From positions 22,591 to 86,590 of the forward strand of contig CAVQNT010000006.1 in NCBI GenBank assembly GCA_963714275.1: DNA of 64,000 nucleotides, read 5' to 3'. Source of the DNA: Candidatus Bathyarchaeota archaeon (GTDB lineage Archaea; Thermoproteota; Bathyarchaeia; Bathyarchaeales; DTEX01). A program made the translations under genes and the position numbers. The notes under the pieces were generated by a model. That model was not told the origin of the DNA. It saw only the letters and a list, made by a program, of their open reading frames with translations, and made no database searches. Positions 36,455 through 52,676 of this stretch are shown one piece after another (within the stretch, counting starts at the first letter, position 1; every line of letters starts with the position of its first letter).

Positions 36455-36840
36455 AATTTTTGCCTCCTACAATCCTATCAGCAACCGCCTTTAAACTGTT
36501 AAAGGTTTCGAAAGAAAATGGCTTCTAGAAGCTGTCTTATTTGTGTAACAACCGAGTTTTCCATTTGTGTAACAAGAAAAAGGTATGGTTTGTCGTCAAC
36601 TGTTTTTTATTGTTGGATCGAGCTAAATGGAAAAATTTCTTTTCTCGCTATTCTGGTTGTATATGTGCATCATATGTTGGAGGAGGGGGATTTACAGCCT
36701 TTTTCTTTGTCAAGATTTTTATTGCAATGACAGCGGGCGGAAGGATTAAGGCTACCAGCAATATAAGCATGAAGGGATTTATCATGTTAAATGTTTTTAG
36801 TAATCATTTTTATTATTTATACCATATTATCCAGTTAAGG

Positions 36841-36914
36841 AGCCTCAGGCGGGATTTGAACCCGCGGTCTCCACCTTACCAAGGTGATGCCCTAACCAGC
36901 TGGGCCACTGAGGC
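36841..36914 (-). tRNA. tRNA-Thr(GGU)
   Basis: Minus strand reads GCCTCAG TG GCCC AGCTGGTTA GGGC A TCACC TTGGTAA GGTGG AGACC GCGGG TTCAAAT CCCGC CTGAGGC T. This is a clean cloverleaf with anticodon GGT and no encoded CCA. Confidence 0.85.
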
Positions 36915-37105
36915 ATAGGTTACTTTTTAGCCTATGCGGAAATTTAAAGTTTTGTTTGATGCTGTTATGTTATGGGTTTTGTGTATTAAGAAACGATTAA
37001 ATCTACAATGAATGGAGACATCTCCCGCAACTCCCCCTCTTTTTTTGTTTTCTATATCGTGAAAGTCTTTTTTGTTACCAATGATAGTTTTCAGGAGGGG
37101 AGACG

Positions 37106-37408
37106 GTGAAGATGATTACGCTTTTGATTTCTGAATCCTACATCGTAGCGTTGGACAGTCTTGTTGGGCAAGGCAATTTTCCATGCAGAAGTGAAGCCGT
37201 CAGACTCGCCGTCAGAGATCTGCTCGTGAAAGAAGGCTGTTTGCCCAAGGCAGAAATTTCAGAAGATTTGACGGAAAAACTTGCTGTAGCCATGCACCTG
37301 GACAAGCAAATGAAATTTTACAAAGAACATGCTGGGAAAGTTGACTATAAACCTGGCCTCTACTGGATACAAGAAAAATACCGCAAGCAAAAGGAGGCTT
37401 CTGAATGA
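37106..37408 (+). CDS. ribbon-helix-helix (CopG/Arc-like) DNA-binding protein
   Basis: ITLLISESYIVALDSLVGQGNFPCRSEAVRLAVRDLL has the beta-strand/helix/helix pattern. It is the first gene after the tRNA. Confidence 0.6.
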   Translation: MKMITLLISESYIVALDSLVGQGNFPCRSEAVRLAVRDLLVKEGCLPKAEISEDLTEKLAVAMHLDKQMKFYKEHAGKVDYKPGLYWIQEKYRKQKEASE

Positions 37409-37584
37409 AGTGCCCAAACTGTGAGTCAGCGAATCTGCAGCCTCATTATGATGGCACGTTTACGCCTAACGGCTGGATCTGCATAGACTGTTGTCACGTC
37501 GACAGGACTCTCGAGGCGCCTAAAGTCCCGAAAATGCCCTTGATTGGGATCAAGACTTTGCGTAAAGCGTGGTGGGAAAAATGA
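37405..37584 (+). CDS. small zinc-ribbon protein (59 aa, below the ORF-track cutoff)
   Basis: MKCPNCESANLQPHYDGTFTPNGWICIDCCHV... (CxxC...CxxC). The ATG overlaps the upstream stop and the stop overlaps the next ATG. Confidence 0.5.
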   Translation: MKCPNCESANLQPHYDGTFTPNGWICIDCCHVDRTLEAPKVPKMPLIGIKTLRKAWWEK

Positions 37585-37763
37585 CTGAATCTACCGTTAG
37601 ACTTGTTGTTAAACGGACTTATCGAGGCGTCCCCTACAGCGTTAATGCATACCTGCAAAGCCTAACCAGCGTTGAGCCTGTGATGGCGGTTGTTGGACAG
37701 ATTGAAGAATTCATCGACCGGGAAGTCCAGAAACAAAGTATGGAAGAGAAGGGTGGAGGATAA
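37581..37763 (+). CDS. hypothetical small protein
   Basis: ORF MTESTVRLVVKRTYRGVPYSVNAYLQ... is translationally coupled to both neighbours. Confidence 0.4.
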   Translation: MTESTVRLVVKRTYRGVPYSVNAYLQSLTSVEPVMAVVGQIEEFIDREVQKQSMEEKGGG

Positions 37764-37765
37764 CA

Positions 37766-38035
37766 ATGAAGAAGGTTAGGAAGAGCATTGTTTATCAGCG
37801 TTGCGAAGACCTCGCTGGGATTCTTGTTGAACAAGGGTATTCAGTCGTGAATGATTATGATCTTGAGTACCTGCTGAAACGGTATGTTGGCGCTGACCCC
37901 CGAACTGTCAAGGCATACAAGAACCATCTTGTTGAATTCAATTTTCTGCAACGTACGAAAGACGGTTTCAACATTTTGAAAGTGTGGATTCCCGTCCAGA
38001 AACGTTTGGAGGCTGTCGCAGAATCTTCCAAGTAA
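37766..38035 (+). CDS. hypothetical protein, possible winged-helix
   Basis: 89-aa ORF in the same tightly packed operon. Confidence 0.4.
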   Translation: MKKVRKSIVYQRCEDLAGILVEQGYSVVNDYDLEYLLKRYVGADPRTVKAYKNHLVEFNFLQRTKDGFNILKVWIPVQKRLEAVAESSK

Positions 38036-38190
38036 TTTGTGTGTGCGTGTATTTGGATGTAAGGGGCTAAGGGAAAAATGAAACGAAAAACTGCTAATAA
38101 TAATAATAATAAAAAATATCGTTTAGCTATGCAGCTGTAGCTGCACACACACACAAATCCTATATAAGCATTTTTAGAGCGCACACAAAA
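38036..38190. repeat. intergenic repeat cluster: GT/CA-rich boxes in inverted orientation, (TAA)6 microsatellite, GCAGCTGTAGCTGC palindrome
   Basis: TTTGTGTGTGCGTGT (38036-38050), (TAA)6 (38095-38112), GCAGCTGTAGCTGC (38131-38144), GCACACACACACAAA (38143-38157), GCGCACACAAAA (38179-38190). Confidence 0.8.
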
Positions 38191-38589
38191 AAGCAAAAAC
38201 AAACAATTCCAAAACCTGAACATTGTTCTAACCCATGGAAGCCTGACTGCGAGAACACCGACATCGCCCTGGATATTGAACATCAGGGGAAAAGGCGTCC
38301 TATCTGCCGAAAATGCTGGGAAACCATCAGCAGGAGCAGACATCAATGGTGACCAGCATGTTTTGTCTCGGAAAGGGTAGATGTCTGGACCTACGAATCT
38401 CTTGGGTATGGAAAACTACTTTTTCGTCGTCAATTTTTGGGCTAAAAAATGGTGCTGAAAAGTGTCCCAAAAACTTGTCTAATAGATGGTTGAAAGGGCT
38501 TGGAACGTGGTTCACGGAAGTGTATGTCAACATTACTGGTTTGTATCCAGAGTCGGTTTTTGTGGTGATTCAGTATTTTGTGGAGGCGA

Positions 38590-38815
38590 ATGTTGTTGAA
38601 GAGGAAAAAAGACCAAATTGTTGAGATTAAGCGCATAGAAGTTGAAATTAAGGATATTCAAGGCTGTTTTCCAGCCCAGATTATGAGCTCGCGGAAGCAG
38701 CTTTTACGTCCGTTTGGATCCCTCTTTCATCAGATTCTACGAGTTGCAGCCGGGAGACGAGATCCTGGTCACAATCACGGAAGCAAAACGTGAAAAAAGA
38801 GAGGAAACAAAATGA
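38590..38815 (+). CDS. AbrB/SpoVT-like (swapped-hairpin) DNA-binding protein; frame broken near 38690
   Basis: MLLKRKKDQIVEIKRIEVEIKD... then (shifted) GSSFYVRLDPSFIRFYELQPGDEILVTITEAKREKREETK*. The stop overlaps the next ATG. Confidence 0.45.
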
Positions 38816-39090
38816 GGATAAACATTGTCATCAACGGATGGCATGACCTTGCGAAGATGATTCTGCGGGTCACATGTCTGGCTGGAATAGTTGGCATCGC
38901 ACTCAAACTCATTTTCTACGTGGTCATGATCAACGTTTACATTGCCCTGCTTCCCAACAACATTTACGCCGTCGCAATCGCTGAAAACTTCTTTTTTCCG
39001 TATTTCCCTAACGCACTGGACTCCGCCTTCCTAATTGTTGCTGCGATGTTTTTGGCGCTTGAAAAAAGGACGAAAAGGGGAGAGAAATGA
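38812..39090 (+). CDS. small membrane protein
   Basis: 92 aa with 2-3 hydrophobic helices. Confidence 0.45.
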   Translation: MRINIVINGWHDLAKMILRVTCLAGIVGIALKLIFYVVMINVYIALLPNNIYAVAIAENFFFPYFPNALDSAFLIVAAMFLALEKRTKRGEK

Positions 39091-39162
39091 GATAATGGCA
39101 ATTTATTGGTGTGAAACATCGCCGGAAAACATCTGGATGCATCATTCAAAAGTTATGATGCG

Positions 39163-39525
39163 ATGATTTGGCATCTTAAAAAAGTGCATGATATTAAAAT
39201 TGTGGAGCGGTGGAGGCTTATTGAAGGTCATAATTTTTGGAATCTTACTAATCCAAATTTGAAAGTTATTATGAAATGTAGCATTTGTGATTGGTATGCG
39301 TATAGTGAAAATTGGGATGATGCTTATAGGATCGCTAATCAACATGAAAAGAATCACATGAAATATTATTGTTGCGGAAAAGGGTTTAGAAGTCTCGTAG
39401 TGCTTCTTAGGCACGTTGATAAGGTTCATGGCGTCCATGTTGGGTTTGAAAGGGGGATGTCTAAGAGAAGGCTGTTTTTGGATGGAATAACAAAATCAGC
39501 TAAAAGGAGATGTTACTTGGGATGA
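39163..39525 (+). CDS. C2H2-type zinc-finger protein
   Basis: MKCSICDWYAYSENWDDAYRIANQHEKNH and YYCCGKGFRSLVVLLRHVDKVH (Cys pair ... HxxxxH). HLKKVH at the N-terminus suggests a further finger if an upstream fragment starting at 39096 is joined. Confidence 0.55.
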   Translation: MIWHLKKVHDIKIVERWRLIEGHNFWNLTNPNLKVIMKCSICDWYAYSENWDDAYRIANQHEKNHMKYYCCGKGFRSLVVLLRHVDKVHGVHVGFERGMSKRRLFLDGITKSAKRRCYLG

Positions 39526-39715
39526 CTCAAAAAAAAGAGAATTGAAAATTTGGAAAGGTTGAAGGAGACTTATCACAAAACTTTAAGTTAGTAGCTTTTG
39601 TTTTTCTGTCCCCCTTCGGAAACTCTTCAGTCCTGTCCTTTCAGGAGAAACAAAAAGTGGGAATTTTAGGCTTTAAGCTTACGTTGCCTATATAGCGTGT
39701 ATGCGATTATCCATG

Positions 39716-40523
39716 CTAACCTGATGGCGACATAAAAGCCCACTCGTAGAAGATGCCTGTTGTGGTGATTACTCTGATACAATATGATGTGTCAGGTTGC
39801 AGCTTCAGTGTCTTCCAGATTATAGTAATATCTTTTGTGGACCCGACGTCGATTGTTGTTGGCAACGTAGGTGAAACAGATGCTTCGGTAGTGGCATTAT
39901 ACCATGTTGCTCCTGGATTTAATCTTATAACAACTGATTGTATCGTTGCAGTGGCGCTTCCTGTATTCCTTACGGTTATCTTAGTTGTATTCTGAGATAC
40001 AATCCATTGCACCATATCTATCATTATTTGTATCTGTGGTGGTTGTGGTGTAGAAGCGATTATTTGGTTTCTGGCGAACTTAACAACTACTGGTAGTTCT
40101 TGTTGTGGTGGAGCACCTTGGTTAATATCAAAAGTCAAAGTTAGAGTTACCGAACTTTTTGCTGGAGTCTGTAATTGTCCAACACCATAATCTCCCTTCT
40201 TGCTCAGGAATTATCACACCACTGACTGAAGCATTTACGTCAATACCTTGAGGTATTTGAGTCTGTCCTTGTCCGTCAAGGAAGTAGACATCCACATCTA
40301 CGATAATGTCTTTATTTGCCGAATTGCGAATTGTTAAGTTCTGGACCTTCGTCTCACCTGCGTATGCAGTAATTGAAAACGTGGATGGTCTTATAGAGAT
40401 TGGTTCATTAATTGTGAGTGTTGCTTGAACGAATAAGATGTCCCATGCCCCTACAACCCCAATGCTGAACAACGATACAAGCAGTACTACCAAGATTAGT
40501 TTCTTAGTCCTTTGCATTTTCAT
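39716..40523 (-). CDS. secreted or membrane-anchored beta-rich protein (possible adhesin/Ig-like); frame broken near 40200
   Basis: Signal/anchor MKMQRTKKLILVVLLVSLFSIGVVGA, then alternating beta-strand-like sequence. Pieces 40128-40523 and 39716-40138 join via SKKGDYGVGQLQTPAKSSVTLTLTFDINQG. Confidence 0.45.
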
Positions 40524-40804
40524 TTCTCCTTATACCTTCTTGTGTGCTCTTTCTGCTCTTCCATTAGAGTCTAAGTGGTTTCACACTTCCAACAGAGTTT
40601 ACTGCTAGCTAGCTATAAGCCGTTATTATAATTGAACGTATAAGGGTTAAGAAAGATAATTAAGAAATATAAATCTATTAAATAATAGCAGTTAAAAGAA
40701 GAAGAAAAAGCCTATAATCTTTACTGAAAAAATTTAATGTGACTAGGCTTTGCCATTTTTGTTTTTTTGTGGTGTTTTTGTGTGTGAGTAGAGTAGTTAG
40801 CTGA

Positions 40805-40948
40805 CTAATTGTGATTGTTTTTTGAAATTTTTTCTTCTACTGCAAGCTCAATGTAATTTGAGCGGGACCTCTGTTCTCTTTCACATATTAACTTCAGTTT
40901 TTGGATGATGCTTTTGCTTAAAGCAACGCTGATTATTTCCTTATTCAT
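40805..40948 (-). CDS. ribbon-helix-helix protein (47 aa, below the ORF-track cutoff)
   Basis: MNKEIISVALSKSIIQKLKLICEREQRSRSNYIELAVEEKISKNNHN*. It is divergent from the portal gene. Confidence 0.5.
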   Translation of the reverse strand: MNKEIISVALSKSIIQKLKLICEREQRSRSNYIELAVEEKISKNNHN

Positions 40949-41053: not shown

Positions 41054-42342
41054 TTGGCTCTTAAATGGATTAAAAGAATTTTTGCGAAGGACACAGCTGA
41101 ACCGGGCATCAGAGGAGCTGGAGCCACCAGCCAAGCGGACTTTGGCACTCCGATAAGTGACACTGATCTTCTTTTCGCTGTTAAAAGGGAGCCTGTTGCA
41201 CATCGCATCGTCTTCATGGTTGCGCATGACATTTTTGATAACTGGTTCAGCGTTGACGTTGCAGGCGAAAAAAGGCCTGATACAAGATTTAACGATCAGA
41301 TCCAAACGGTTCTTGATGATCTTGAAGCAAAATCTGTTTTTACGGAGATGGCTGTTTATGAGAGGCTTTACGGTGAAGCAGTCGTCCTCGTCGGTTATTC
41401 TGATTATGGAAAGGACCTTATAAAACCCGTTAAGGATCCTCAAAGCATCGAGGATCTTGTGGCTTACAGTCCTCTTGACTTTAATGTTTCTTCTTCTGAC
41501 GAAGACAGGGATCCGAAAAGTCCTCGTTACGGGCTTCCAGAATTTTACACTTTTGTTCGAGGCAGCCAAACTGTAAGGGTTCATTATAGCCGAGTTATCC
41601 ATTCTGCGACAAGGCTGTTGGATCATCCTTACAGAGGTCTCAGCACCCTTGAACCCGTGTATGATGACCTTACCGTCTTGCGTAACATTCGCTGGGGTAT
41701 GGGTCAAACTATGGTTCGTTACGGTGGCGGTTTCCCTGACATCACATTGAAAGGTAAAGACGCGGACAAGATTGACGACTTCATTATGGGCAAACAGATG
41801 GAGACCGTTAACGCTAGGACATATTTTGTGCATAACGAGCTTCAAGAGCTTGAGTTTAAGGGCGTAGGCGGAGTTACGCTTGACCCAGAAAAGTATTATG
41901 TGCCCATCATGGAAAGCATCAGCGCAGGCTCCGGGATTCCATTAGCCATTTTACGGGGTGCCAGACTGGAGCATTAACTGGTTCAGAGGTTAATGAACGG
42001 GAATATTTCAAGCTCATAAGTGATGCTCAAAGCCGTTACGAGCCTGGAGTCCGAAAATTGCTTGATATGCTTATCGAATGTGGACAGGTCCGTTGGTTCT
42101 ATAATGTGCCCAAGAAATATCGGGTCAGCTGGGGAGGAGGCTTCGAAGTAAACGAGAAGGACCAGGCCTTAACACAACTTTCAGTAGCGCAGGCAATGAA
42201 TCTCCACTCAAACTGGATGACTTTGAATGAGCTTAGAGCAACGATGGATCCACCGCTTCCTGCCCTTCCAAGTCCTCAGGGAGATCTTATTCTCGGGTTG
42301 GAGAAGCTGCAGCAGTCACAGAAATTATTGTCACCTATTTAG
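41054..42342 (+). CDS. portal protein (DUF1073-type); frame broken at about 41957-41960 (GCCAG where GCCCAG is expected)
   Basis: RLYGEAVVLVGYSD, VRVHYSRVIHSATR, and ISAGSGIPLAILRGA then (shifted) QTGALTGSEVNEREYFKLISDAQSRYEPGVRKLLDMLIE. This is the conserved DUF1073 portal core as I recall it. Confidence 0.7.
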
Positions 42343-42344
42343 AG

Positions 42345-43239
42345 ATGGTTGAAATGATGAAGATTGGAACATCGCAAGTTGAGTTGGATTCGACAAAAAT
42401 CTTGAAGGAAGACGATGAAGAATTAGTCCTTCCCGGCATCCTTGCTCGCGAAGGCGTTTTTCCTTATCCTGGAGGACGAGCGTTTAGACCTCGTGAAAGA
42501 CTGAAGTCAAGGCTAAAGACTTTCGAGGTGCCTAGAGTATTCGACTCAGAGACATCCTGATTCTATGGTCTTGACAGATCCTGATTTATGTGTCGGCAAA
42601 GTTGACGGTGTGACTTGGAATGAAGATAAAGGCGAAGTTCACGGTAATGTCCATTTATTCAAAAATTGCTTAACTCCTGAGTTTCTTGCTGGAGTTAAAT
42701 CTGGTGCATTTTCTAAAAATAGCATGGGGTTTCTTTTCAGGGAAGATGCGACCAGTGGCGAATTTAATGGTCAAGCGTATGATTATGTGCAGCGGAAGAT
42801 TCTTGTGGATCATATAGCCGTGGGAGTTCCGAACCCGAGAGATCCAGGTTGCATCCTTGGCGTAGATGATTTTTCAAGTGAAATAAGTGTGAACCTTAAG
42901 GGCGCTGATGCTTGGGAAACAAGTTTCATTAACGACCTGCCTGACTCGTCCTTCGCATACGTCGAGGATGGCGGAAAAAAGGATGATGAAGGCAAAACTG
43001 TTCCCCGAAGCCTTAGGCACCTACCCTACAAAAACGGTCAAGGCACCATTGACCACGACCACCTCGTTAACGCTCTTGCAAGGGTTAGCCAGTCTGCAAC
43101 TTTGCCTGAAGGCGGAAAGACAGCTGCTAAAGACAAATTGTGTGGCGCAATCCGTAGCTGGAACAATGAACACGCTGACAGCAAGATTGAGTCAGAAGTT
43201 TGTGGCGTAACGGGAGATTGTCTCCTGGACGCCTTTTGA
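42345..43239 (+). CDS. DUF2213-like head-morphogenesis protein (putative prohead protease/scaffold-associated); frame broken near 42548
   Basis: LPGILAREGVFPY...HPDSMVLTDPDLCVGKV...NSMGFLFREDATSGEFNGQAYDYVQRKILVDHIAVGVPNPRDPGC matches the DUF2213 pattern (S.G...G...YD..Q..I..nH.A.V...R). It lies immediately after the portal gene. Confidence 0.5.
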
Positions 43240-43369
43240 GGAGATTGAGAGGTCAAAGAGACTGTTCATAGTCACTAAATTCAACAATTTAGGGATAGAA
43301 TTGCATCGAGATGATGGTGCTGAGACTCACGACGGGTCTTTAAACTAGCAAAAAAATGGAAAAAAGAAA

Positions 43370-43782
43370 ATGTCAAATCAGGACGGGTCAGATGCGGAAC
43401 AAAACAAAGCCATAAAGGTTACTATTGACCAGGTGATGGCTGAAAACCTAAGTTTGAAGCAGATAGTTCAAGATCTGGACCAAACTGTGAAGGATCTTAC
43501 ATCTCAGCTTAAGGCTGCGAATGACGTGCTTGAAGCGCAAGCGAGGGCGAAGTTGATTGCGGAAATCAAACCCCGCAGCAGATATTCTGACGAGGACTTA
43601 ACGAAACTTTCGCTTGACGACTTAACAAACATCAAGGTTACGCTTGACAACGCTAAAATGTCGAACTTACAAGAACATCCACTTCGGTCCCCTAGGGATT
43701 GATGAAGCGCAAGGACGAGGGACTAACCGTAGGAGACCTATCGGTTGTCACAGAAGCTAAACGCAAAGCAAGGAGCGCATAA
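43370..43782 (+). CDS. coiled-coil scaffolding-like protein; 3' end frame-broken
   Basis: Heptad-rich KQIVQDLDQTVKDLTSQLKAANDVLEAQARAKLIAEIK. Its position between the portal/DUF2213 genes and the capsid genes fits a scaffold. Confidence 0.45.
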
Positions 43783-43784
43783 GT

Positions 43785-44261
43785 ATGCCACAATTTCTCG
43801 TTAAACCCACGAACCAAGTTGTGGTTCAGGGCAACCCGATAAAGGTTGAATACGAAGTTGGAGCGAATGCTACGGCTGCAAAAATGCTTCCTGGAAGACT
43901 TGTAATCTATGACACTGTTGCTAAGGCTGTTAAAGAGGCTGGAGCCGAAGCTGACAACGTTTTAGGATTCCTTGATGTCGCAGCTGAATATCTTGAAGCT
44001 ACACATTACGAGGTAGGCGACCAAGTCTTGGTTGTCATGGGTGAATGTATCGCTAAACTAACTTTGTTGGCAAGCGAAAACGTTGCTCCTGGAGACTGGT
44101 TGGTTGCTGCTGCTGATGGAAAAGTTGCGAAGCAAGCTGTTGGTGCTATGGGGGCTCAGGGAATGCCTGTTGGGCAAGCTTTGGAACTGAGTAATGTTAC
44201 GGTTGACGCTGAGATCTTGGTTCATTGGATTCCGTGCGCTGAGCCTGCTGCTGCAAGTTAA
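43785..44261 (+). CDS. DUF2190-like capsid decoration/cement protein
   Basis: 158 aa, Gly/Ala/Val-rich beta protein (LPGRLVIYD...VLGFLD...VGDQVLVVMGECIAKL...VAPGDWLVAAADGKVAK) directly upstream of the capsid gene. Confidence 0.4.
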   Translation: MPQFLVKPTNQVVVQGNPIKVEYEVGANATAAKMLPGRLVIYDTVAKAVKEAGAEADNVLGFLDVAAEYLEATHYEVGDQVLVVMGECIAKLTLLASENVAPGDWLVAAADGKVAKQAVGAMGAQGMPVGQALELSNVTVDAEILVHWIPCAEPAAAS

Positions 44262-44273
44262 GGGTGATCTGAT

Positions 44274-45152
44274 ATGAAACCGCTTACAAAAGTTGGTTTA
44301 GAAACAGGTTCCTTAACTGATGAAGAACTCCGTTACCTTGACGGCAGAGTTGTTGAAACGGTGAGACCTCTGCTTGTTGGTAGACGGTTGTTCCCAGTGT
44401 TCAGGCTTCCGAACGCAGGAATTAAGACTGTCCGAGGCTGGAAAGAAACGGACATGAGCCAAGCGACGATTGACATGAACGGTCAGGTAGACGCTTTTGA
44501 CAGGATTGAACTCGCAGAATTCGACATCAAAGTGCCAGTGATAGCCAAAGGCTTCAGATTGAATTGGAGAGACATCCTCGCTTCACGTAACGGCGGAATT
44601 CCGATTGACGCCCGAAGCATAGAGAATGCTGCTCGACAATGCGCTGAAGAAGAAGATCAACTACTGTTAACTGGAGAACGGACAAGTTGGAAGGCTCTCG
44701 GAATCGAAGGATTAGCTACTGCTACGGGCAAAGAAACTCAGGGGTCAGCTGGAGCTTGGGGAGCAAACAGCATCGTCGACGTTAGTGCTTGCATTGCTAA
44801 GCTTGAGGCAGGCGGACACTACGGTCCTTACGCTTTAGTCGTGAGGTCAGCGTGGTATGCGAAGCTGAGAGCATTGATTGCTAACACAGGCATCTTTTAC
44901 CTCGAAAAAGTCGCTGAGCTCGTGAAGGCAGGAATCTTCGTGAGCGACAACCTCTATTCAAGCGCTGATGCGACAACAATCGCATTAGTCGTTGAACCAA
45001 CTCAGGAAAACTTTGAGCTCGTAGTCGGACAAGACATGAACACGTGGACAGTTCAAGACGAAAACATGAACACTAAAGGCAAAGTTTACGAGGTCGTTGC
45101 GCCCCGCATCAAAAGACCTGAATCTATCTGTGTTTTGACTGGATTATCTTAA
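44274..45152 (+). CDS. HK97-fold major capsid protein, encapsulin-like
   Basis: 292 aa, alignable by eye along its whole length to family-1 encapsulin shell proteins: LTDEELRYLDGRVVETVRPLLVGRRLFPV; IELAEFDIKVPVIAKGFRLNWRDI; IENAARQCAEEEDQLLLTG; GPYALVVRSAWYAKL; ALVVEPTQENFELVVGQDMNTW...KVYEVVAPRIKRPESICVL. Confidence 0.7.
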   Translation: MKPLTKVGLETGSLTDEELRYLDGRVVETVRPLLVGRRLFPVFRLPNAGIKTVRGWKETDMSQATIDMNGQVDAFDRIELAEFDIKVPVIAKGFRLNWRDILASRNGGIPIDARSIENAARQCAEEEDQLLLTGERTSWKALGIEGLATATGKETQGSAGAWGANSIVDVSACIAKLEAGGHYGPYALVVRSAWYAKLRALIANTGIFYLEKVAELVKAGIFVSDNLYSSADATTIALVVEPTQENFELVVGQDMNTWTVQDENMNTKGKVYEVVAPRIKRPESICVLTGLS

Positions 45153-45228
45153 GGGGCGCTAAGGTAGTCCTAATAAAATTTTTTCCTCCGCTTTTTAGGA
45201 GCGTTCAATACGAGTAGTCATCAAAAAC

Positions 45229-45561
45229 ATGGAGAAAAAAGGATTGCCAGAACTGATAGCGTATGCGGGACCGATAGAGACGACAGATGCTTACGCGACA
45301 GCATTGAAGGTTAAGCTTCCCCCTCAAATCAGCAAGGCCATGGTTCACATTAAGGAGCTTGACGTGAACGATATTGATTGGAAGATTCTCGGCAGCATAG
45401 ATGATGACATCTATTTTGAGGAAAACGCTGAAGCAACAGTCACGAAAGACGATTCAGATGTCCACGAAGTAACGAAAGCGTGGATTTACCTTGACATCCA
45501 GGTGAAGTCTACCGTGTCCAACAATTCAGGCGAGATTGCAGTCGCAGTTTCAGGGGCTTAA
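45229..45561 (+). CDS. hypothetical acidic protein (possible minor head/connector protein)
   Basis: 110-aa ORF immediately after the capsid gene. No recognisable motif. Confidence 0.3.
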   Translation: MEKKGLPELIAYAGPIETTDAYATALKVKLPPQISKAMVHIKELDVNDIDWKILGSIDDDIYFEENAEATVTKDDSDVHEVTKAWIYLDIQVKSTVSNNSGEIAVAVSGA

Positions 45562-45564
45562 GCG

Positions 45565-46410
45565 ATGAGATTCAGGATCTTACCGAAAGTCAAAAGTTTC
45601 AGTGACGCTGCGGGAAACCTTCATTGTCCTGGAGACATCGTAGATCTTCCGCCTAGTTATCTTGGCGAAAATTGGCTTGAGCCAGTTGACAAGGTTGACG
45701 TCAAAAAGACTGAGGCACGTTTGGAACCTTCCAAGCCTGTTGCGGAGAAAGAAGCAGTTGTCCCCTTCGAGACCCCAAAGACGCAGAGGAAGGTAAAAAA
45801 AAAGTTAAAGTCCTAATCGGCGTTCCATGCCTGAACGACAAGGACAGGTATGCAGGTTACAGAGACTTAATCTTATATGCTGCTGAACTGTCGATTGGAG
45901 ACGTAGAACACAGCGTTTATGTTTCTCCGAATTCGAGGGCAATCGAGGTATACGGGATAGTTGAATGCGACAACGACATAGTCAAATATTTTTTGAGCAA
46001 AGATTTTACGTATCTTTGGATGGTTGAGCTTGACACCGTTGTCCCTAAAGACGCTTTCTCTCGAGCTTTTTGGTTTAGACGTTGACATTGCCCTCGGTTA
46101 TTTTCCGAGCCACCGAGACTTTAACAGGCTGATCGCTGGCTGGATCGGTGAAGACGGTAAAGTCTACTATCTTCCACGGTTCGCGTTGAAGGGTCAGGTC
46201 CTGCGTGGCTGGGTTTTCGCTGGGACAGGATGTATGCTTGTTAAAAGGCGTGTCTTCGAGGTTGGGGGAATCCGTTTCAAATACAATCCTGACGTCGGTG
46301 GACCTGACGTTTCATTCATGTTTGATTCTTTGCGAAGAGGGTTTACTGCAGCCCTCCATGGAGACGTAGAATGCGGACACTTGCCTGAATGGCTGTTGAA
46401 GGAGGGTTGA
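45565..46410 (+). CDS. GT-A-fold (GT2-like) glycosyltransferase with an ~80-aa N-terminal extension; joined across an A9 tract (45795-45803) and a second break near 46060
   Basis: The GT frame is open from 45714 but has no ATG/GTG/TTG before VKVLIGVPCLNDKD. It continues LWMVELDTVVPKDA (DxD-like), then GWVFAGTGCMLVKRRVFEVGGIRF. The upstream ORF 45565-45816 ends in the A9 run. Confidence 0.45.
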
Positions 46411-46414
46411 AGGC

Positions 46415-46690
46415 GTGGGTTTGGATAATGCACACTCTGGAACTTCTTCGAAAAAATTGGTTGATAAACATAGAGTTATTGAAAAAAAGATTTTGTTCAC
46501 TCTTTTGAATGGACCTGTGAGACTTCGTGACATTTTGAAACATGCTTACAAAGACTCTGCGCCCGTTTACAGTGGCACCCAGGTTGTTTATTGGTTAAGA
46601 GATAACGGTTACATCCAAAAAACAGGCAAAGGTCATAGCGACCCTTACATGATCACTGAACGGGGACGAAGATACTATGATTGCACCTGA
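46415..46690 (+). CDS. winged-helix DNA-binding protein
   Basis: RVIEKKILFTLLNGPVRLRDILKHAY...VVYWLRDNGYIQKTG (PadR/MarR-like wHTH). Confidence 0.45.
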   Translation: MGLDNAHSGTSSKKLVDKHRVIEKKILFTLLNGPVRLRDILKHAYKDSAPVYSGTQVVYWLRDNGYIQKTGKGHSDPYMITERGRRYYDCT

Positions 46691-47090
46691 CTCCAAAAAG
46701 AAAGAAGATTTTAAAAGAGCACTATTGAGCTGGGAAACAAAACACAGCATCCTCGTCGTAAGGGAAGACGGGAAATTCTTTCAAATTTTTAGGATCCTGA
46801 AATCTCGTAGGAAAATTAGTCCTTGGACCTGCTGGCGTAATGAATGTTTATGCAGTAAACAGTTAAGTCGTCCGCACTTGACTTGTTTCAGCTGCAGAAT
46901 CAGAAGGGTCATTGGTAAAGAGATTCCTCCAATCCTCGAAGTTACACCTTACGTTTTACTGATTCCACGGTACCGGGGAAAGCTGAAGACTTTTCTGGGA
47001 AAGAAGTTCTGCACGTTAGTGAAAGATTTAATCGGTAAAATCCCTTACTATACAGTTAGTGAACTAAACGGTAATCCCCATTTTAGGTGA
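46677..47090 (+). CDS. hypothetical Cys-rich protein
   Basis: 137-aa ORF with the cluster CWRNECLC...CFSC. Confidence 0.3.
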   Translation: MIAPDSKKKEDFKRALLSWETKHSILVVREDGKFFQIFRILKSRRKISPWTCWRNECLCSKQLSRPHLTCFSCRIRRVIGKEIPPILEVTPYVLLIPRYRGKLKTFLGKKFCTLVKDLIGKIPYYTVSELNGNPHFR

Positions 47091-47146
47091 GCTTAGCTAA
47101 TTGGTCTATGAATCTGTTATAGTAGTCTATTGGCTCAAATAACTAT

Positions 47147-47874
47147 CTAGATTTTCCAGAAAGCCATGTATCCCCTTCTTTGTTTTTTCATTTCCTTCAC
47201 TCTTTGTTCTAGGTCAGCTTTGCCTTTTTCATATTCTTCCTTCTTTATCAAATCATCTTCAAACATCTGCTTCAATAGAATAGGTAGAATTTCGGCAACT
47301 GGCGGAGTTATTTGATTAAAAAACTCATCGATTTTTTCTTTAGGTATCATAAAAAGATTCTTAGAAGTTTCTTCGACAAAGGATATAAAGTCTGAAAAAA
47401 TTTCCTTGGCAGACACAAAATCCAACTGTGCGAAATCCATCGGATTTTTCCATTCACTATTCTTATGGTCGACATATAGACAGACTTTCTCGAACCCTTC
47501 TAAATTCATTGACAGCCTCGCCAAGTTCTTTTATCGATTTTTCTATTTCCTGTCTGGACGGCTTTTTCTTGGGATAGACTAGTTCTCCCCTCTTCTGACT
47601 TGCGTAGATGCCAAGGGCGAAGGCTGTTTTAGATTTGTGGTCCATTAAATCCTTTCTTACTTTTTCATCGTATTCAAAAAAACCCACATAAGTCATCGCA
47701 TAAAAATATGCCTTTGCCAGCTTCCTCCATTGCAGTAAAGTATAGGAAGAAAGCATGGGCAAAACTATTATTCTCTGCCAATATGTCTGCGTCTTGCGTA
47801 AGACGATTCACATGATCCATACAGATATCTCTGCCTTTTCTAAAATCAATTTGTTTTAGCATGTTCATCCCCAT
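47147..47874 (-). CDS. AbiV-like HEPN-domain abortive-infection protein; 2 frame breaks
   Basis: Three pieces (47674-47874, 47463-47762, 47147-47524). N-terminal RLTQDADILAENNSFAHAFFLYFTAMEEAGK, then DHKSKTAFALGIY and KVCLYVDH, resemble the AbiV family pattern (from memory). Confidence 0.45.
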
Positions 47875-47888
47875 TCTTCATAATAACA

Positions 47889-48164
47889 TTACAACATACT
47901 ACTGGTTACAATCATATATCTTAATCCACAAGAACCTTGAATGCGAGATATGTTAACAACACGAACGCGCGCTTCATTTCTTCTATACAAAATTCTTCCG
48001 TGAGGTTCCGTAAATAATTTCGTTCCGCATTTCTTACAATAGAAGGTTTTACCACCGAAAAAAATGTTTTTTACTTCATAACAATTTTTGCATATAGTAA
48101 AAGCTAGTGAACTGTAGCCAGCTATAAAATTGGCGCATGTGGTACTCTTGGTGCGCGCACACAC
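47889..48164 (-). CDS. zinc-ribbon protein
   Basis: CKNC...CKKC pairs in a 91-aa ORF with a GTG start. Confidence 0.4.
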   Translation of the reverse strand: MCARTKSTTCANFIAGYSSLAFTICKNCYEVKNIFFGGKTFYCKKCGTKLFTEPHGRILYRRNEARVRVVNISRIQGSCGLRYMIVTSSML

Positions 48165-48262
48165 ACATTTCTAACTAAATGATAAAAATCACAAAAATAT
48201 TTTGTCAAGAACTGTCAAAAATAAAAAATGTCAATTCGTCAATGTCAAAAATCGCAGGCTCA

Positions 48263-49702
48263 CTAACGTATTTTCATTTTGCATATATTACCGAGAAATT
48301 CTTGGTTCAAGGGTTTATTTGGACCAGTGTTTTTCACACTTCTTATCTTTACCTTATAAAATGCTTTTTCGTGCTCTTGAAAATAAGCAGATGTTGTTAG
48401 AATAACTGCATTTACTCTTTTCGTTAGTTTCAGTTTTCCTTTTAATCCGTTTTCAAGAAGCATTAAATCTCTTGCAAGCTCCTTCTCGTCCCTGTAAAAC
48501 CCCATGTTCATTTCGATGTAGATTATTCCAGGTCCCTCTGTGGGTATCTGAGTATAGGCATGATCAAATGAATTAAGAATACCTTTTATTCGATCAGGTA
48601 AGAGCGACGAAACAAACACCACAAGACGGGGATTCTTGTGCTTAGGCTCAGGGGCATTAATCGATACGTTATCTCTTTCCAGATAGAGATCTATTACAGG
48701 ATTTGTCCAATCAAAACTAAATCCATCCATACTTGGTTTGATGTTTTCATCTGAATGGTGATAAATATCTAGCGTAGGTTCATGCATATTAACATTAAAT
48801 TCTCGGAGATCGGGCTTAAAATGACCGTCTATAACATTGTTTAATTTAGGGAATTCTTTCAAAATTATTTGGAATTTATTTGCTGTAAATACCCCGCATT
48901 TTGAGTTTTTAATTGAAGTTTGAATGTATTCTATTAGAAAGTCTTTATCTGCCGTTGTTAGATCTGAATCTGTTTTAACAACAGCAGCGTAATTTTTCCC
49001 AAGGTTATCTAAAGCCTTCAGAACATTTACTAAGATTTCATCCCAGAGGTATTGGTTGCGCATGTCTCTTTGTGACTTCTTATCTTTTTGCTTGCATTCA
49101 ACATAGACTTTCTCTCCATCTTTTTCAACGCACATATCTGGCGTCTTCTCTTTTTCTTCCTTAATAAAGCAAACTTGGTATCCTGCTCGCTTGAGAGAAG
49201 ATGCTACTTTTATCTCATATACAGCCTTCTCAAAACTCACAGAATCTGTTAATCTTGTTCTCCACATTTTTCGAGTACTATTTTTTATCTTTCTGCCATC
49301 CTTGCTAATCAATGCAATAGATTCTATTTCCATTAAATTATTACCAAGATCAAATAACTCCAACAATTCCTTTGTAAAAGAATGGGTTTGCTTTTGAAGG
49401 AGACTTTGATAATTAGGATAGCCTTTTCGCCACAAAGCAATAAGAGGATTAGGAGTTGGGCTGATCAGATGCCCATATTTCTTAGGTTTATGATCTGTAC
49501 TTGCTTTCGCTATAATTATTGGTTTGTGCTCAGAAACCTTGAAAAATTCTTCCCCAGTAGTAGATACGACCTTTTCTATGGCTAGGCGAATGCTATCTAT
49601 TGTTATTTTCCATTCCTTGTAAGTCATAATTTCAATCGACGATGAAATAAAATGTACTTTAACTTTTATATAGCGTGCGCTGGTAGATACAAAAAGAGTC
49701 AA
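48263..49702 (-). CDS. large hypothetical protein with a PD-(D/E)xK nuclease-like core (probable start at ATG 49627)
   Basis: FEKAVYEIKVASSLKRAGYQVCFIKEEKEKTPDMCVEKDGEKVYVECKQK has the E...PD...ExK arrangement. The remaining ~300 aa have no motif I recognise. The gene is AT-rich. Confidence 0.4.
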   Translation of the reverse strand: MTLFVSTSARYIKVKVHFISSSIEIMTYKEWKITIDSIRLAIEKVVSTTGEEFFKVSEHKPIIIAKASTDHKPKKYGHLISPTPNPLIALWRKGYPNYQSLLQKQTHSFTKELLELFDLGNNLMEIESIALISKDGRKIKNSTRKMWRTRLTDSVSFEKAVYEIKVASSLKRAGYQVCFIKEEKEKTPDMCVEKDGEKVYVECKQKDKKSQRDMRNQYLWDEILVNVLKALDNLGKNYAAVVKTDSDLTTADKDFLIEYIQTSIKNSKCGVFTANKFQIILKEFPKLNNVIDGHFKPDLREFNVNMHEPTLDIYHHSDENIKPSMDGFSFDWTNPVIDLYLERDNVSINAPEPKHKNPRLVVFVSSLLPDRIKGILNSFDHAYTQIPTEGPGIIYIEMNMGFYRDEKELARDLMLLENGLKGKLKLTKRVNAVILTTSAYFQEHEKAFYKVKIRSVKNTGPNKPLNQEFLGNICKMKIR

Positions 49703-50111
49703 TTATTCTGATAATTAACAAAGCACGCTTTATTGTCTAGTTAGTCTATTTTTTTTTTTAGTTGCTTTTTTGAGAATATCTACCATATAATCATGTAGCG
49801 TTTTTCCTTCTAAGGCTGCTTTTGAGACATGATACATGTTTTCATCATTCGTACACATGTAATATTGTTAAAGTCCCTCCCTAACCACTACACTTTTCTG
49901 TATTTGGAATCATTTGCCCTATGAGACTATGGACAGATATTTTACTAATACTGTTTCAGGATATCCATAAAAAATAAAAAAAACACCAATATATAGTATT
50001 ATATATAATCTCCCCCTTTTCTGGGCATTTTATATACCATAAAACATATATGTTGGAAAACTATACTTTTACAATATATATCCAAAGTATAAGAAATGTG
50101 GAATAAGACTA

Positions 50112-50819
50112 TTGCCACTATATAGGATTCAAAGGGATGATGTGTTGCGTAAAGAAGAGATAGATAGTCTCTTGAATCAATGCACACAAAACTTAATTGA
50201 TGGAAAAAAAGTAATTGAAAAAGAGTATGGATTATTTCCTATCAAGTTTAGCCCACCAATGATTCAATGTTTCATTGCACTTGAATGGCTGTTTGGCAAA
50301 CGGATAAGGGAAACATTAAGGCTTAGGCGTCAAGATGTTTATTGGGATGATGAATACCTTTGTGTCAACTTCACTGTCCAAAAGAAGAAGAATAGAAAGG
50401 CAACTTCAGCACCACAGAGGACTTTAAAGAAAATATCATTAAGCAATCCTTACACACGATATATCATTGACTACGTTTCCACAATAACTGATGGATGGAT
50501 ATTCAAGGGTGCAAAGGGAAGGCGTGAGAAAACAGTATATTGGAAAGATGATGAGGGGAAAATAATAAAGTCCTATCATTATGTTGATGAGGATGAGGGG
50601 CGTTTATCTCAGGAGTATGCCTTACAGATTTTAAAAGCATTGGATATGAACATTTGTTGCCATCTTTTCCGTCACAGTTTAGCAACACTAATGGCTGAAC
50701 ATGAAGCAACCCAAGAAGATTTAATGAATTGGTTCGATTGGGACCGGGTTGATACAGCTCATAATTATGTTAGGGGTGGACCAAGGATGACAAAGAAGTG
50801 GAGTGACAGAACATGGTAA
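50112..50819 (+). CDS. tyrosine recombinase/integrase (short form)
   Basis: FGKRIRETLRLRRQDV (Arg I), CCHLFRHSLATLM (HxxR), and VDTAHNYVRG (Tyr). Confidence 0.7.
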   Translation: MPLYRIQRDDVLRKEEIDSLLNQCTQNLIDGKKVIEKEYGLFPIKFSPPMIQCFIALEWLFGKRIRETLRLRRQDVYWDDEYLCVNFTVQKKKNRKATSAPQRTLKKISLSNPYTRYIIDYVSTITDGWIFKGAKGRREKTVYWKDDEGKIIKSYHYVDEDEGRLSQEYALQILKALDMNICCHLFRHSLATLMAEHEATQEDLMNWFDWDRVDTAHNYVRGGPRMTKKWSDRTW

Positions 50820-50836
50820 GGGAGGTGACTTGAGCA

Positions 50837-51049
50837 ATGAATAAAATATCAAAATGGAGTAGATTAGATTATTATTTCCATGAGAATTGGTTCCATAAAT
50901 ACATCCATAGAAAACTAAGAGGTGAGGATGTTAAGCTGGCAAGACAACTCCTGAAGCAACATCCAGATTGGAGTAAGAGAGAATGTGTGGAGCAGGCTAC
51001 ATCAATGATGCTTAGGAAGAGGGCTGAAGAAAAGTTGGAGAGAGTTTAA
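50837..51049 (+). CDS. hypothetical small protein (HPDWS family, copy 1)
   Basis: 70-aa ORF reading ...KYIHRKLRGEDVKLARQLLKQHPDWSKRE... Confidence 0.4.
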   Translation: MNKISKWSRLDYYFHENWFHKYIHRKLRGEDVKLARQLLKQHPDWSKRECVEQATSMMLRKRAEEKLERV

Positions 51050-51064
51050 AGGAGGTGATAAAGA

Positions 51065-51233
51065 ATGAATAAGCTCTTTTATGAAACTACAGGAGTATGT
51101 CCACAATAAAGAGGCAGAGGAAAAAATCAAATTAACACAGAAACTGAAGAAGGAGCACCCTGATTGGAGTGATGACGCAATCTGGGTAGCAGCTACAATG
51201 AAGGTCAATGAGTGGAGAATGGAAAGACTTTAA
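51065..51233 (+). CDS. hypothetical small protein (HPDWS family, copy 2); frame broken near 51090
   Basis: MNKLFYE then (shifted) LQEYVHNKEAEEKIKLTQKLKKEHPDWSDDAIWVAATMKVNEWRMERL*. It is clearly paralogous to the preceding ORF. Confidence 0.35.
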
Positions 51234-51603
51234 CATATTAAGTAAAATTGGTGTGGATAGCGAATATTTGGAATCTTCGAACGTCCCAAATGTTCGGTAA
51301 CATGTCTAGACTTGGAATCTGGACTATAAAATAAAAAAAATTCTATCTATTTTAATGAACAATGATTGAATATAATGTTAGAACTATATTTTTTGGCCAG
51401 TTTGAGCAATTGAGTTGATGTGATACAACAATAATGAGCCTAAAACCAGTGATAGTGATGTGATAAATCTCGTTGTATTCATAGAGTATTGAAAAAGTGT
51501 GTAGATATTCACATAGTAGGATAAAGAACCTTGTAAATGAAGATTAGGTATTGAAACAGATGATGATACTATAAGGGCTGTCGCCCTTTAACCTAACCCT
51601 GAA

Positions 51604-52380
51604 TCATGTCAAATCCTCATAAAAATAGCGAAAGTCAGGACGCCAGAAATTGTGAAATGGTTTCAAACCAAACACCTTATCAACGTTAAAGATTTTAATA
51701 TCCCTCAAGTAAATTTGCATCAACCTTAACCATCTAGGCACATGAATCACTTGTTTTCTACCCATCATACAAACTTTTTCAGTTCGTTTACCATCAGCAA
51801 CTATGAAATAATTAGCCTTTCTCCAAACTGCAATGTACTTGTAATGACCTTGTAACTCAAAATCAATACCAACGTCCTTTGTGACTTTTTCTGATATTTC
51901 CTTAGCCAAATCATTTGTTATTCCACTAACGTAAAGGCTATCAGTGTGACCAAGTAAGACCTTGCCATTGTTCTCTTTGATTATCCTTACGATATCTTGT
52001 ATAACACCCTCTGTAATCTCGGAAATTTGCCCACCCATGTTAACCATAATGATGTTAAGGTTGTAACATTCAATCATTTGGGCTCTTGTCAAGTTTCCAT
52101 TGTGGAAGATAATTTTGATTGCATCTGGATACATAAGAAGTTCATTTATTGTTATATCCCATCTCTCTGGGCTGGCATAACTATACCTTGCCCAATTCCA
52201 TACTTGACCAACAATGAGCTTATCTCCCGCCCACGCAAATAGGTCAACACCAGCCTCCCAGACTTTGTGTACTTGGACGTTATACCCTAATATGGCAATA
52301 ACAATTGCAGACTACTCTCTCCCCAATACTGCCTGTGTACAAATTATGATACATTTTTTTGGGATAGGAAGGTAACTCAT
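51604..52380 (-). CDS. calcineurin-like metallophosphoesterase (phage Ser/Thr-phosphatase-like), with an in-frame TAG at 52312-52314
   Basis: Ordered motifs GVDLFAWAGDKLIVG (GD), IIFHNGN (GN), and VLLGHTDS (GHxx), with spacing like small MPEs. Motif I (DxH) is not recognisable (AILGYNVQVH). Confidence 0.4.
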
Positions 52381-52676
52381 TTTTAAGTGTGTCTTCAATA
52401 GATGATGTCTCTATTATTTGGTTTTTATACATTCATTTTTCATCAACTAGTGATTGTACTTTTGTAAGAGGTCACTTATATTGTTTTTGTATATAACTTT
52501 ACTTATAATCCGTATAGTTGATGTATTTTCCGTATAGTTCCACAATATTTCAAAAATTTTATAGAGAAAGACAAAAGGAAGTCTACTTTTAGGACTAGGC
52601 ATAATCGCTCTGACCTACAGCGCGCGCTAGCAGGACAAATTTCTTTAACTATTAAGAAACTGAAAAAATTGGGAGA

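Follow-up and report, generated by a model that had tools for sequence, protein, structure and literature searches.

Gene content and borders of the island

The window, that is, the whole 64 kb stretch of DNA analysed here, is part of a Bathyarchaeia chromosome and contains an island that extends from 36.9 to 53.1 kb. A tRNA-Thr gene marks its left border, and from position 53084 on the genes are those of the host (GFO/IDH/MocA, DeoC, PfkB, SecY). The features are listed below.

36839..36914, minus strand: tRNA-Thr(GGT), left host boundary (ARAGORN; Rfam, 70 bits)
36990..40804: early or accessory region of the presumed provirus (family HMM matches, Pfam, synteny table)
37020..37051, plus strand: 32-nt element ATCTCCCGCAACTCCCCCTCTTTTTTTGTTTT (blastn-short and fuzzy search)
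40805..40948, minus strand: RHH (CopG-type) regulator, 47 aa (Pfam RHH_1, 21.1 bits against a cutoff of 20.5)
41054..42342, plus strand: portal protein, ~430 aa (Pfam Phage_portal_3 at 41054-41977, E 4.6e-27)
42345..43239, plus strand: Pa193 gp24/DUF2213-like internal head or scaffolding protein (Pfam DUF2213/Pa193_gp24 at 42565-43239, E 5.9e-6)
43370..43782, plus strand: coiled-coil scaffold protein, ~136 aa (ORF 43370-43702; DNA alignment with related loci L024, L103 and L105)
43785..44261, plus strand: XM1 gp53-like minor capsid or decoration protein, intact (Pfam XM1_gp53, PF23982, E 3.7e-7)
44274..45152, plus strand: HK97-fold major capsid protein (MCP), intact (Pfam Linocin_M18, the encapsulin model, E 1.4e-32)
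45229..45816, plus strand: two conserved small head-operon genes, 110 and 83 aa (tblastn to L006, L102 and L103)
45774..46410, plus strand: conserved ~200-aa protein (tblastn and DNA alignment with relatives)
46415..46690, plus strand: 91-aa wHTH-like protein (weak Pfam match)
46677..47038, plus strand: 119-aa four-Cys protein, last gene of the head operon (comparison with relatives)
47067..53083: low-GC (35%) block without a homolog in any related locus, ending at host genes
50112-50819, plus strand: short tyrosine recombinase, inside the low-GC block

The conserved part of the island is a cassette (40805-47038) made of the divergent RHH gene, the genes from portal to MCP and five further small genes, encoding the 110-aa, 83-aa, ~200-aa, wHTH-like and four-Cys proteins. 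The operon is common to ~45 related Bathyarchaeia loci. Its left edge is the RHH gene (blastn boundary at 40808), homologs of which were found by tblastn at the same position in L057, L062, L069 and L103. A preliminary description, made from the letters of this DNA, had recognised a head module of portal, DUF2213-like protein, scaffold, minor capsid protein and encapsulin-like MCP at 41054-46410, with a divergent 47-aa RHH gene upstream. Pfam bears out these genes, the RHH gene among them. The module is larger than was drawn, and the protein at 43785-44261, taken at the time for a DUF2190-like one, belongs with the XM1_gp53 minor capsid proteins. The MCP is 86-90% identical to metagenomic relatives, and among GenBank phages none has an MCP more than 29% identical to it. 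The gp24 protein of Pa193 has a role as internal head or scaffolding protein (PMC11456595); across relatives of the window, the C-terminal half of its counterpart is hypervariable. As to the small genes, the 110-aa and 83-aa proteins have no Pfam or PHROG match, and the ~200-aa protein, a putative glycosyltransferase-like protein, is fused in some relatives to a methyltransferase-like domain (weak Methyltransf_11 match). The AF2 model of the four-Cys protein, with a pLDDT of 46, is too poor for use.

The early region holds small RHH, zinc-finger and wHTH-like genes, and two minus-strand genes for secreted Ig-like proteins (39716-40523) form a divergent unit with the RHH gene of the cassette. 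Two early ORFs link it to the relatives (family HMM matches f135, E 1.9e-10, and f55, E 1.6e-4): ORF 37706-38032 has a homolog among the early genes of the complete virus IMGVR_UViG_3300031877_000004, and ORF 36990-37106 weakly resembles a small gene 3' of the integrase in L006-L008. L006, L007 and L008 contain the 32-nt element too, with 31 of the 32 bases conserved, ~60 nt past the stop codon of the integrase. A terminator, an early promoter region and an att-associated site are all possible readings.

On the other side of the operon, the ~6 kb low-GC block starts with minus-strand genes (47147-49702), one of which encodes a 479-aa PD-(D/E)xK-like protein, and it also carries a 176-aa ORF. 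The window's recombinase is unrelated to the integrase of L006, and PADLOC gave no match on the flanking genes. GC and gene content shift at the natural boundary of the operon. Is the tRNA gene the attachment site? This was considered and rejected, as the island is found 5' of the tRNA gene, and repeat and k-mer searches turned up no second copy of any tRNA fragment at the island. The sole repeat of tRNA sequence is 18 nt at 11404, part of a second, intron-containing tRNA. The same searches found no att repeats between the island ends.

Packaging, neck and tail genes

An HK97-fold MCP and a portal are present; where are the TerL, neck and tail genes that a complete Caudoviricetes provirus has? 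Pfam and PHROGs scans found no terminase, neck or tail gene among the ORFs of 36.9-53 kb, and tblastn with the lineage's own TerL against the whole 64 kb window returned nothing at E <= 10. Profile HMMs of 155 protein families from related loci, TerL, tube, gp10-like, tape-measure (TMP) and adaptor families included, matched only the cassette and the two early-region ORFs, with no TerL, neck or tail gene among the matches. The absence of terminase and tail genes from 36.9-53 kb, as first described, thus holds in every one of these searches. The 479-aa ORF was considered as a terminase and rejected, having no Walker A motif, no relative in the PDB and only a weak PD-(D/E)xK (Mrr_cat) match.

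Gene order in related loci

Homology between the window and related loci is restricted to 40808-47066 and the two early ORFs: over 40808-47066 the window is collinear with L006, L101-L105 and others, homology stops beyond, and the flanks have no homolog in any of ~110 related loci. What follows the head operon elsewhere? The most informative relative is IMGVR_UViG_3300031877_000004, a 38.7 kb viral contig whose MCP is 73% identical to that of the window. Its order is integrase, head operon, gp10-like gene, Phage_tube_2, tape-measure gene, a gene for a 1492-aa protein and TerL; with 29.6 bits this TerL passes the Terminase_6N cutoff, and a PDB search pairs it with T4 gp17. L019 and L020 have the same gene order. 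In relatives whose MCP is 60-73% identical, gp10-like, tail-tube and tape-measure genes lie downstream, with a Terminase_6N/6C TerL past the tail genes wherever that part of the locus can be reached. Neck and tail genes also lie downstream in L009, L010/L011, L014, L015, L065, L072, L078, L087 and L109.

In relatives with sufficient flank the head operon is followed by a variable cargo hotspot and then by the neck/tail operon. This hotspot is real: L107 has 3.4 kb of minus-strand cargo before its tail operon resumes, and L062 ~2.5 kb. The low-GC block of the window sits at the same position.

Among closer relatives, L006-L008 (MCP 86% identical) have a four-Cys gene that runs straight into the gene for a 117-aa protein. 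The AF2 model of this protein (pLDDT 81) has phage neck and adaptor structures as its best PDB matches (the Douge connector with a probability of 0.94, the P74-26, SaPI1 and Mu necks, and HK97 gp6), and we predict it to be a gp6-like adaptor; the profile of the family gave no match to PDB sequences. In the closest relatives, L101/L102 and L103/L104, the genes that come after the operon are not tail genes, and the contigs end before any tail operon could show. Extension from L007 and L101 in IMG/VR found nothing. An earlier reading of L103 as a head-only cassette between host genes was withdrawn, its flanks falling at the lineage's two variable positions. The relatives' loci lie in unrelated contexts, without a conserved chromosomal position.

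The lack of a terminase upstream of the portal had been taken as telling in the preliminary description. This expectation does not apply to the lineage: wherever upstream sequence is available for a relative of 60% MCP identity or more, small divergent genes lie ahead of the portal, as in the window, and since TerL never adjoins the portal in the closer relatives, its absence there is normal. A 504-586-aa ATPase encoded upstream in relatives was considered as the packaging enzyme and dropped once the canonical TerL had been found; it has a weak match to phrog_2666 ('terminase large subunit') and resembles a HerA/FtsK-type P-loop protein with a coiled coil and a wHTH. PHROGs and Pfam searches on the relatives' large ORFs were mostly uninformative.

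Frameshifts and selection

The cassette contains six 1-nt indels in five genes. The portal is broken by a deletion at ~41961, evident in the DNA alignment and in the two tblastn HSPs to the L006 portal (different frames, 78-82% identical), and the gp24-like gene by an insertion at ~42540. Two insertions in the scaffold gene (~43667 and ~43709) shift its conserved C-terminus out of frame, as the tblastn frames reveal, and another at ~46062 breaks the gene for the ~200-aa protein. Finally, a deletion at ~47019 replaces the 119-aa four-Cys frame with a spurious 137-aa ORF ending at 47090. After correction all head genes are full length. Is this decay or error? The assembly clearly contains indel errors, and all six could be artefacts; host genes, both essential ones (SecY, ProA, SufBD) and TauE and a GFO-family gene, are frameshifted too. 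The cassette has 6 indels in 6.2 kb, the host genes looked at ~5 in 25 kb; this 4-5 fold enrichment (p = 0.011-0.019) suggests real decay of the head genes.

Unique nonsynonymous and synonymous changes number 23/66 in the window and 17/99 in the sister lineage L102, so that the window fares marginally worse (Fisher p = 0.052); the 91-aa wHTH-like protein has no change unique to either. Because the substitutions in the window are mostly synonymous, any truncation would be recent, with no long decay behind it. The 3' boundary of the head operon is exact, not ragged: homology to L101 extends ~30 nt beyond the four-Cys stop codon and then stops.

Origin of the island

The reading that we favour, with a probability of about 70%, is that the island derives from an uncultivated lineage of tailed (HK97-fold) Bathyarchaeia viruses, as a provirus that is truncated and defective. 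It starts from the gene content, the collinearity with relatives, the missing terminase, neck and tail genes and the host boundary, all directly observed. A full-length member has early genes, the divergent RHH unit, the head operon from portal to four-Cys gene, the cargo hotspot, often with minus-strand genes, and the neck/tail operon, with TerL past the tail genes in those members where that end can be reached. Of this the window retains parts of the early region, the whole of the head operon and a block at the cargo hotspot, and since host genes follow directly after this block, the neck, tail and terminase genes would have been lost. The missing part, ~17-20 kb in complete relatives, was probably removed by a deletion or rearrangement, one of whose ends would lie within the hotspot or past it. 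The element alone would then make empty procapsids at most, with neither DNA packaging nor infectious particles, and the six indels may be the first inactivating mutations. The preliminary description had offered a decayed provirus, a satellite-like element and a domesticated particle as explanations. It is the first of these that is favoured; the other two found no positive support. Homologous loci are full-length tailed (pro)viruses of which the island is a truncated copy, and even the 86% identical L006 continues into the adaptor gene. The missing att repeats at the island edges and the raised indel density agree with a truncated provirus. Observations that speak against it are the recombinase gene inside the island, the non-tail genes that likewise follow the operon in L101/L102 and L103/L104, the full-length heads after correction with mostly synonymous change, the exact 3' boundary and the frameshifts in host genes.

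Several of the latter would suit a capsid-forming, satellite-like mobile island that builds its own procapsid and takes terminase, neck and tail from a related helper virus: leaving aside single-base indels, the head operon is whole, the cassette evolves chiefly by synonymous change, a recombinase lies within the island, and the nearest relatives also show non-tail genes 3' of the operon. P0059, another related capsid gene (93.8% identical, with the L024/L071 lineage as its nearest kin), is probably on the same 544,787-bp source contig as the window and could be a helper's. However, to our knowledge every described capsid-forming satellite has a packaging gene of its own and this island has none; att repeats were not found, the cassette is rich in indels, and no conserved element of such composition emerged, the flanks being without counterpart in the related loci. 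The relatives' non-tail genes fit the cargo hotspot, after which tail operons resume, and no homolog of the L006 adaptor on the contig is among 32 database matches. A satellite is unlikely, though it deserves to be kept in mind. Decidedly doubtful is the broader proposal that the window, L101/L102 and L103/L104 form a clade of archaeal head-only elements that borrow terminase, neck and tail from a co-resident related virus, perhaps the one carrying P0059. Could the truncation instead be an artefact, with a less damaged or complete provirus misassembled because of its second related copy, or a virus split in two with the other half elsewhere in the genome? The many indel errors of the assembly and the probable second copy on the same contig would allow it, but the break falls where the repeated sequence ends and leads into 6 kb of unique sequence, whereas misjoins arise inside repeats, and the change in GC and gene content coincides with an operon boundary. 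We regard this as improbable. Least probable is a domesticated operon kept by the host for particles or nanocompartments of its own. The MCP fits the encapsulin model, NCBI labels homologs 'family 1 encapsulin', and the operon has a clean boundary with mostly synonymous substitutions; against this, portal and scaffold genes are present without an adjacent gene for a cargo enzyme, the chromosomal position is not conserved, six indels cross five genes, and complete tailed viruses carry the same operon at 60-86% identity.

Comparison with known systems

The nearest kin of the island are tailed Bathyarchaeia (pro)viruses such as IMGVR_UViG_3300031877_000004 or the chromosomal provirus on JGI contig Ga0334965_0000030. 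They share the head order (RHH, portal, gp24-like, scaffold, gp53-like, MCP, small genes), with 60-73% MCP identity, and one early-region gene; unlike them, the window lacks the neck/tail operon, TerL, the HerA-like ATPase and an integrase of the family type. Tailed Bathyarchaeia viruses of this class have been described (Duan et al., PMC10541130; PMC11705971). Fuxivirus is reported with TerL (gene 27) adjoining the portal (gene 28), unlike the relatives of the window. JAGTQZ010000009_pro, an integrated Bathyarchaeia element with a restricted set of structural genes and no packaging or invasion modules, is called defective by its authors (PMC11705971). The window is like it, as described, in the limited structural gene set; JAGTQZ010000009_pro is rich in antitoxin genes, whereas none was identified in the window.

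The cf-PICIs of bacteria (Alqurainy et al. 2023) are integrated elements that carry genes for capsid morphogenesis but none for a tail, and in this the window resembles them. In cf-PICIs, both the small and the large terminase and the head-tail connectors are encoded by the element itself, and a conserved, att-bounded gene set recurs. In the window, by contrast, no terminase (TerS/TerL), connectors or att repeats were found, and a short recombinase is present. As for recurrence of a tail-less set, relatives with enough context have tails, and the contexts of L101 and L103 are short.

Family 1 encapsulins have an HK97-fold shell protein, as does the window (Linocin_M18), but in the window the shell gene is flanked by those for portal, scaffold and minor capsid protein, and there is no cargo enzyme. 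Since the homologs sit in tailed viruses, the database name 'encapsulin' is a misannotation here. A gene transfer agent would have a head, tail and terminase cluster at a conserved host locus; the window has neither tail nor terminase, and its relatives lie in unrelated contexts.

Significance

Most likely the island represents no new type of satellite or compartment but a defective provirus of the usual sort, and as such it is an ordinary feature of the genome. Frameshifts in this assembly make a pseudogene reading unsafe without a check against the reads, and naming these viral capsid proteins 'family 1 encapsulin' would mislead encapsulin surveys. Were the island a satellite after all, it would be the first of a tailed archaeal virus, a capsid-forming satellite without its own terminase, and would extend capsid-forming satellites to archaea. 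For this lineage, the absence of a terminase beside the portal is no sign of a satellite, as TerL lies past the tail genes and a cargo hotspot splits the head and tail operons.

The head operon of the window

What does the island encode besides a capsid? Pfam searches confirmed the head-gene set read from the sequence (portal, DUF2213-like protein, scaffold, minor capsid protein and encapsulin-like major capsid protein, MCP), and the small divergent gene upstream of the portal is indeed an RHH gene. Stop-to-stop ORF mapping showed that several head genes are split across reading frames.

Head genes of the window
40805-40948: RHH, small divergent gene
41054-41977: portal (Pfam)
42565-43239: DUF2213/Pa193_gp24-like protein (Pfam)
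between the other head genes: coiled-coil scaffold gene
43785-44261: XM1-gp53-like minor capsid protein (Pfam)
44274-45152: HK97-fold capsid protein matching the encapsulin model (Pfam)

MCP homologs are many and of Bathyarchaeota origin. When all ORFs of the related Bathyarchaeia loci (L numbers) were compared with the window by tblastn, and the reverse, homology was limited in both directions to 40808-47066. The genes placed at 41054-46410 in the preliminary description are real, and the conserved cassette is thus larger. Its genes 3' of the MCP encode proteins of 110, 83 and ~200 aa, a 91-aa wHTH protein and a 119-aa four-Cys protein; a 137-aa ORF ending at 47090 is the four-Cys gene minus one base, and adding that base restores the family C-terminus AERFNR. 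The head operon is complete, and homology to L101 stops ~30 nt past its last stop codon. The ~200-aa protein (45774-46410, with homologs in L009, L014, L106 and L109) may modify the capsid: it carries a fused methyltransferase-like domain in several relatives, and its C-terminal half looks glycosyltransferase-like by eye, with no profile confirmation.

Pfam and PHROGs found no terminase, neck or tail gene among the ORFs of 36.9-53 kb, and tblastn with TerL sequences of related loci gave zero matches across the whole 64 kb at a threshold as loose as E <= 10. From ~45 related loci, 155 protein families (among them TerL, two tail-tube families, gp10-like, the tape measure, the adaptor and the HerA-like ATPase) were turned into profile HMMs and run against every ORF of 25 aa or longer in all six frames. 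They matched only the cassette and two left-flank ORFs, 36990-37106 and 37706-38032, which are similar to early genes in relatives. The reported absence of terminase and tail from the island is confirmed. No Walker A motif is present in the largest ORF left unexplained (479 aa, 48263-49702, minus strand), whose only match is a weak one to PD-(D/E)xK.

Layout of related viruses

Where does the terminase lie in relatives? It had been expected upstream of the portal. In a gene-family synteny table across the related loci, those with an MCP at least 60% identical and with upstream context have small divergent genes 5' of the portal, like the window, and never a terminase, so the expectation does not hold for them. 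The 38.7 kb viral contig IMGVR_UViG_3300031877_000004 (MCP 73% identical), rebuilt from overlapping pieces, opens with an integrase and early genes, one of them for a 586-aa HerA-like ATPase, followed by a window-type head operon, a gp10-like protein, a Phage_tube_2 tube, a tape measure, a 1492-aa protein and finally a 483-aa protein with large-terminase motifs (Terminase_6N above the Pfam cutoff; match to T4 gp17). L019 and L020 share this gene order. A probable TerL directly upstream of the portal is seen only in the distant L087/L088 (MCP 48% identical). With TerL beyond the tail in three relatives and upstream of the portal in these two, its position is not fixed in the group.

TerL positions
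L017: 16716-18164
L019: about 16811
L020: about 15140
L087: 4173-5423 (probable TerL)

An early-region protein of 504-586 aa (L002 113-1627; L004 1906-3666; L009 1130-2773), absent from the window, has a HerA/FtsK-type P-loop at its N-terminus and a wHTH at its C-terminus, along with a long coiled coil, and weakly matches PHROG 2666 'terminase large subunit' (E 1e-12 to 4e-4). In the complete relative L004, the 801-aa protein at the tape-measure position (16900-19305) has Hint/intein-type Pfam matches (PT-HINT). The complete viral contig L016 carries a tRNA-Met (11995-12071) between early genes and portal.

The synteny table also revealed a region of variable content 3' of the head operon, its genes often on the minus strand. 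This cargo hotspot between head and neck/tail operons is found in L055-L057, L062, L069, L101, L103 and L106-L108, and resumption of the neck/tail operon past it is directly seen in L107, where the cargo measures 3.4 kb, and in L062. Cargo includes an MmeI-like RM enzyme with a lambda Ea47-like gene (L106), a toxin-antitoxin pair (L101; Panacea-domain antitoxin and small partner gene) and two AsnC regulators with glutamate dehydrogenase (L103/L104). L006-L008 (86% identical) are cargo-free: the four-Cys gene is followed, after a 116 nt gap, by a 117-aa protein whose AF2 model (pLDDT 81) has phage neck/head-to-tail adaptor structures as best PDB matches, with weak E-values.

Flanks of the island

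The left flank holds early-type genes. A 32-nt C-rich element followed by an oligo-T run (window 37020-37051; L006 2272-2303; L007 and L008 126-157) is identical to L006-L008 at 31/32 bases in dissimilar surroundings; the L006 copy lies 60 nt past the integrase stop codon. Its candidate roles are terminator, promoter region and att-associated site. Two adjoining small proteins (39716-40523, minus strand) with signal-peptide-like N-termini and weak CARDB/Ig-like matches fill a variable two-gene slot of the divergent RHH unit, occupied by unrelated genes in relatives (SnoaL and SRPBCC in L103).

Downstream of the head operon lies a 6 kb low-GC (35%) gene block for which none of the related loci has a homolog; one of its genes encodes a short tyrosine recombinase that shows no relation to the L006 integrase. 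Host genes start at 53084 (GFO/IDH/MocA oxidoreductase, DeoC, PfkB, and SecY at 60.3 kb), and the 17-20 kb taken up by neck, tail and terminase genes in complete relatives would not fit before them. No att repeats were found at the island flanks. Eighteen bases identical to the tRNA-Thr, at first taken for an att repeat, proved to lie in the T-arm of a second tRNA gene (11396-11511, minus strand, 116 nt; Rfam 32.6 bits), which was missed by ARAGORN and presumably contains an intron.

Decay or sequencing error

Alignment to intact short-read relatives placed six single-base indels in the cassette: one deletion each in the portal and four-Cys genes, one insertion each in the gp24-like and ~200-aa genes and two insertions in the scaffold gene. 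Is this decay? Host genes are also split between reading frames.

Split host genes
3427-4669: SufBD (essential/housekeeping)
20333-21293: ProA-type aldehyde dehydrogenase (essential/housekeeping)
35646-36466: TauE (essential/housekeeping)
53087-54100: GFO/IDH/MocA oxidoreductase (essential/housekeeping)
60324-61758: SecY (essential/housekeeping)

About eight more are probable (e.g. 14.1-15.2, 23.8-24.8 and 58.6-59.8 kb). SecY is indispensable for the life of the organism, so its splitting means that the assembly contains indel errors, at a sizeable rate. The cassette has 4-5 times the indel density of ~25 kb of checked host genes (p = 0.011-0.019), which suggests real decay, short of proof. 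In a relative-rate test (996 codons, outgroup L006), unique nonsynonymous/synonymous changes were 23/66 in the window and 17/99 in L102 (Fisher p = 0.052); their mostly synonymous nature indicates purifying selection on the head genes until recently.

Nature of the element

Is the element a decayed provirus, a satellite-like capsid-forming element or a domesticated particle? Of these options from the preliminary description, the defective provirus alone is supported; the other two found no support. Lacking TerL and tail, the element is not a complete tailed provirus. An encapsulin would come with a cargo enzyme, absent here, and without the portal and scaffold that are present. The MCP homologs P0010 and P0022, named 'family 1 encapsulin nanocompartment shell protein' at NCBI and 'linocin/CFP29 family protein' at JGI, lie between portal/scaffold and tail genes, so these names mislead for viral capsid proteins. 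A GTA is at odds with the missing tail and terminase genes and with relatives at unrelated loci. A defective provirus fits, and one has already been described in Bathyarchaeia (PMC11705971); a provirus truncated within or past the cargo hotspot would be the simplest reading.

A satellite-like element with its own head genes is unlikely. The operon is intact save for indels, the island has a recombinase gene, and the nearest relatives (L101/L102 and L103/L104) also run into non-tail genes 3' of the operon, on contigs that end too early to reveal any return of tail genes. A helper-like relative may even be at hand: P0059, a second, frameshifted MCP (93.8% identical to the window MCP, 96% to the L024/L071 lineage), has as its one recorded contig a sequence of 544,787 bp, exactly the length of the one contig recorded for the window MCP, so the source genome probably carries a second related element; none of the 32 database hits of the L006 adaptor comes from a contig of that length. 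However, the island, unlike cf-PICI-like satellites, encodes neither terminase nor connectors and has no att sites, and its tail-less gene set was not seen recurring. If true, the satellite reading would be new, as archaeal satellites are known so far only with spindle-shaped viruses (bioRxiv 10.1101/2025.02.15.638363).
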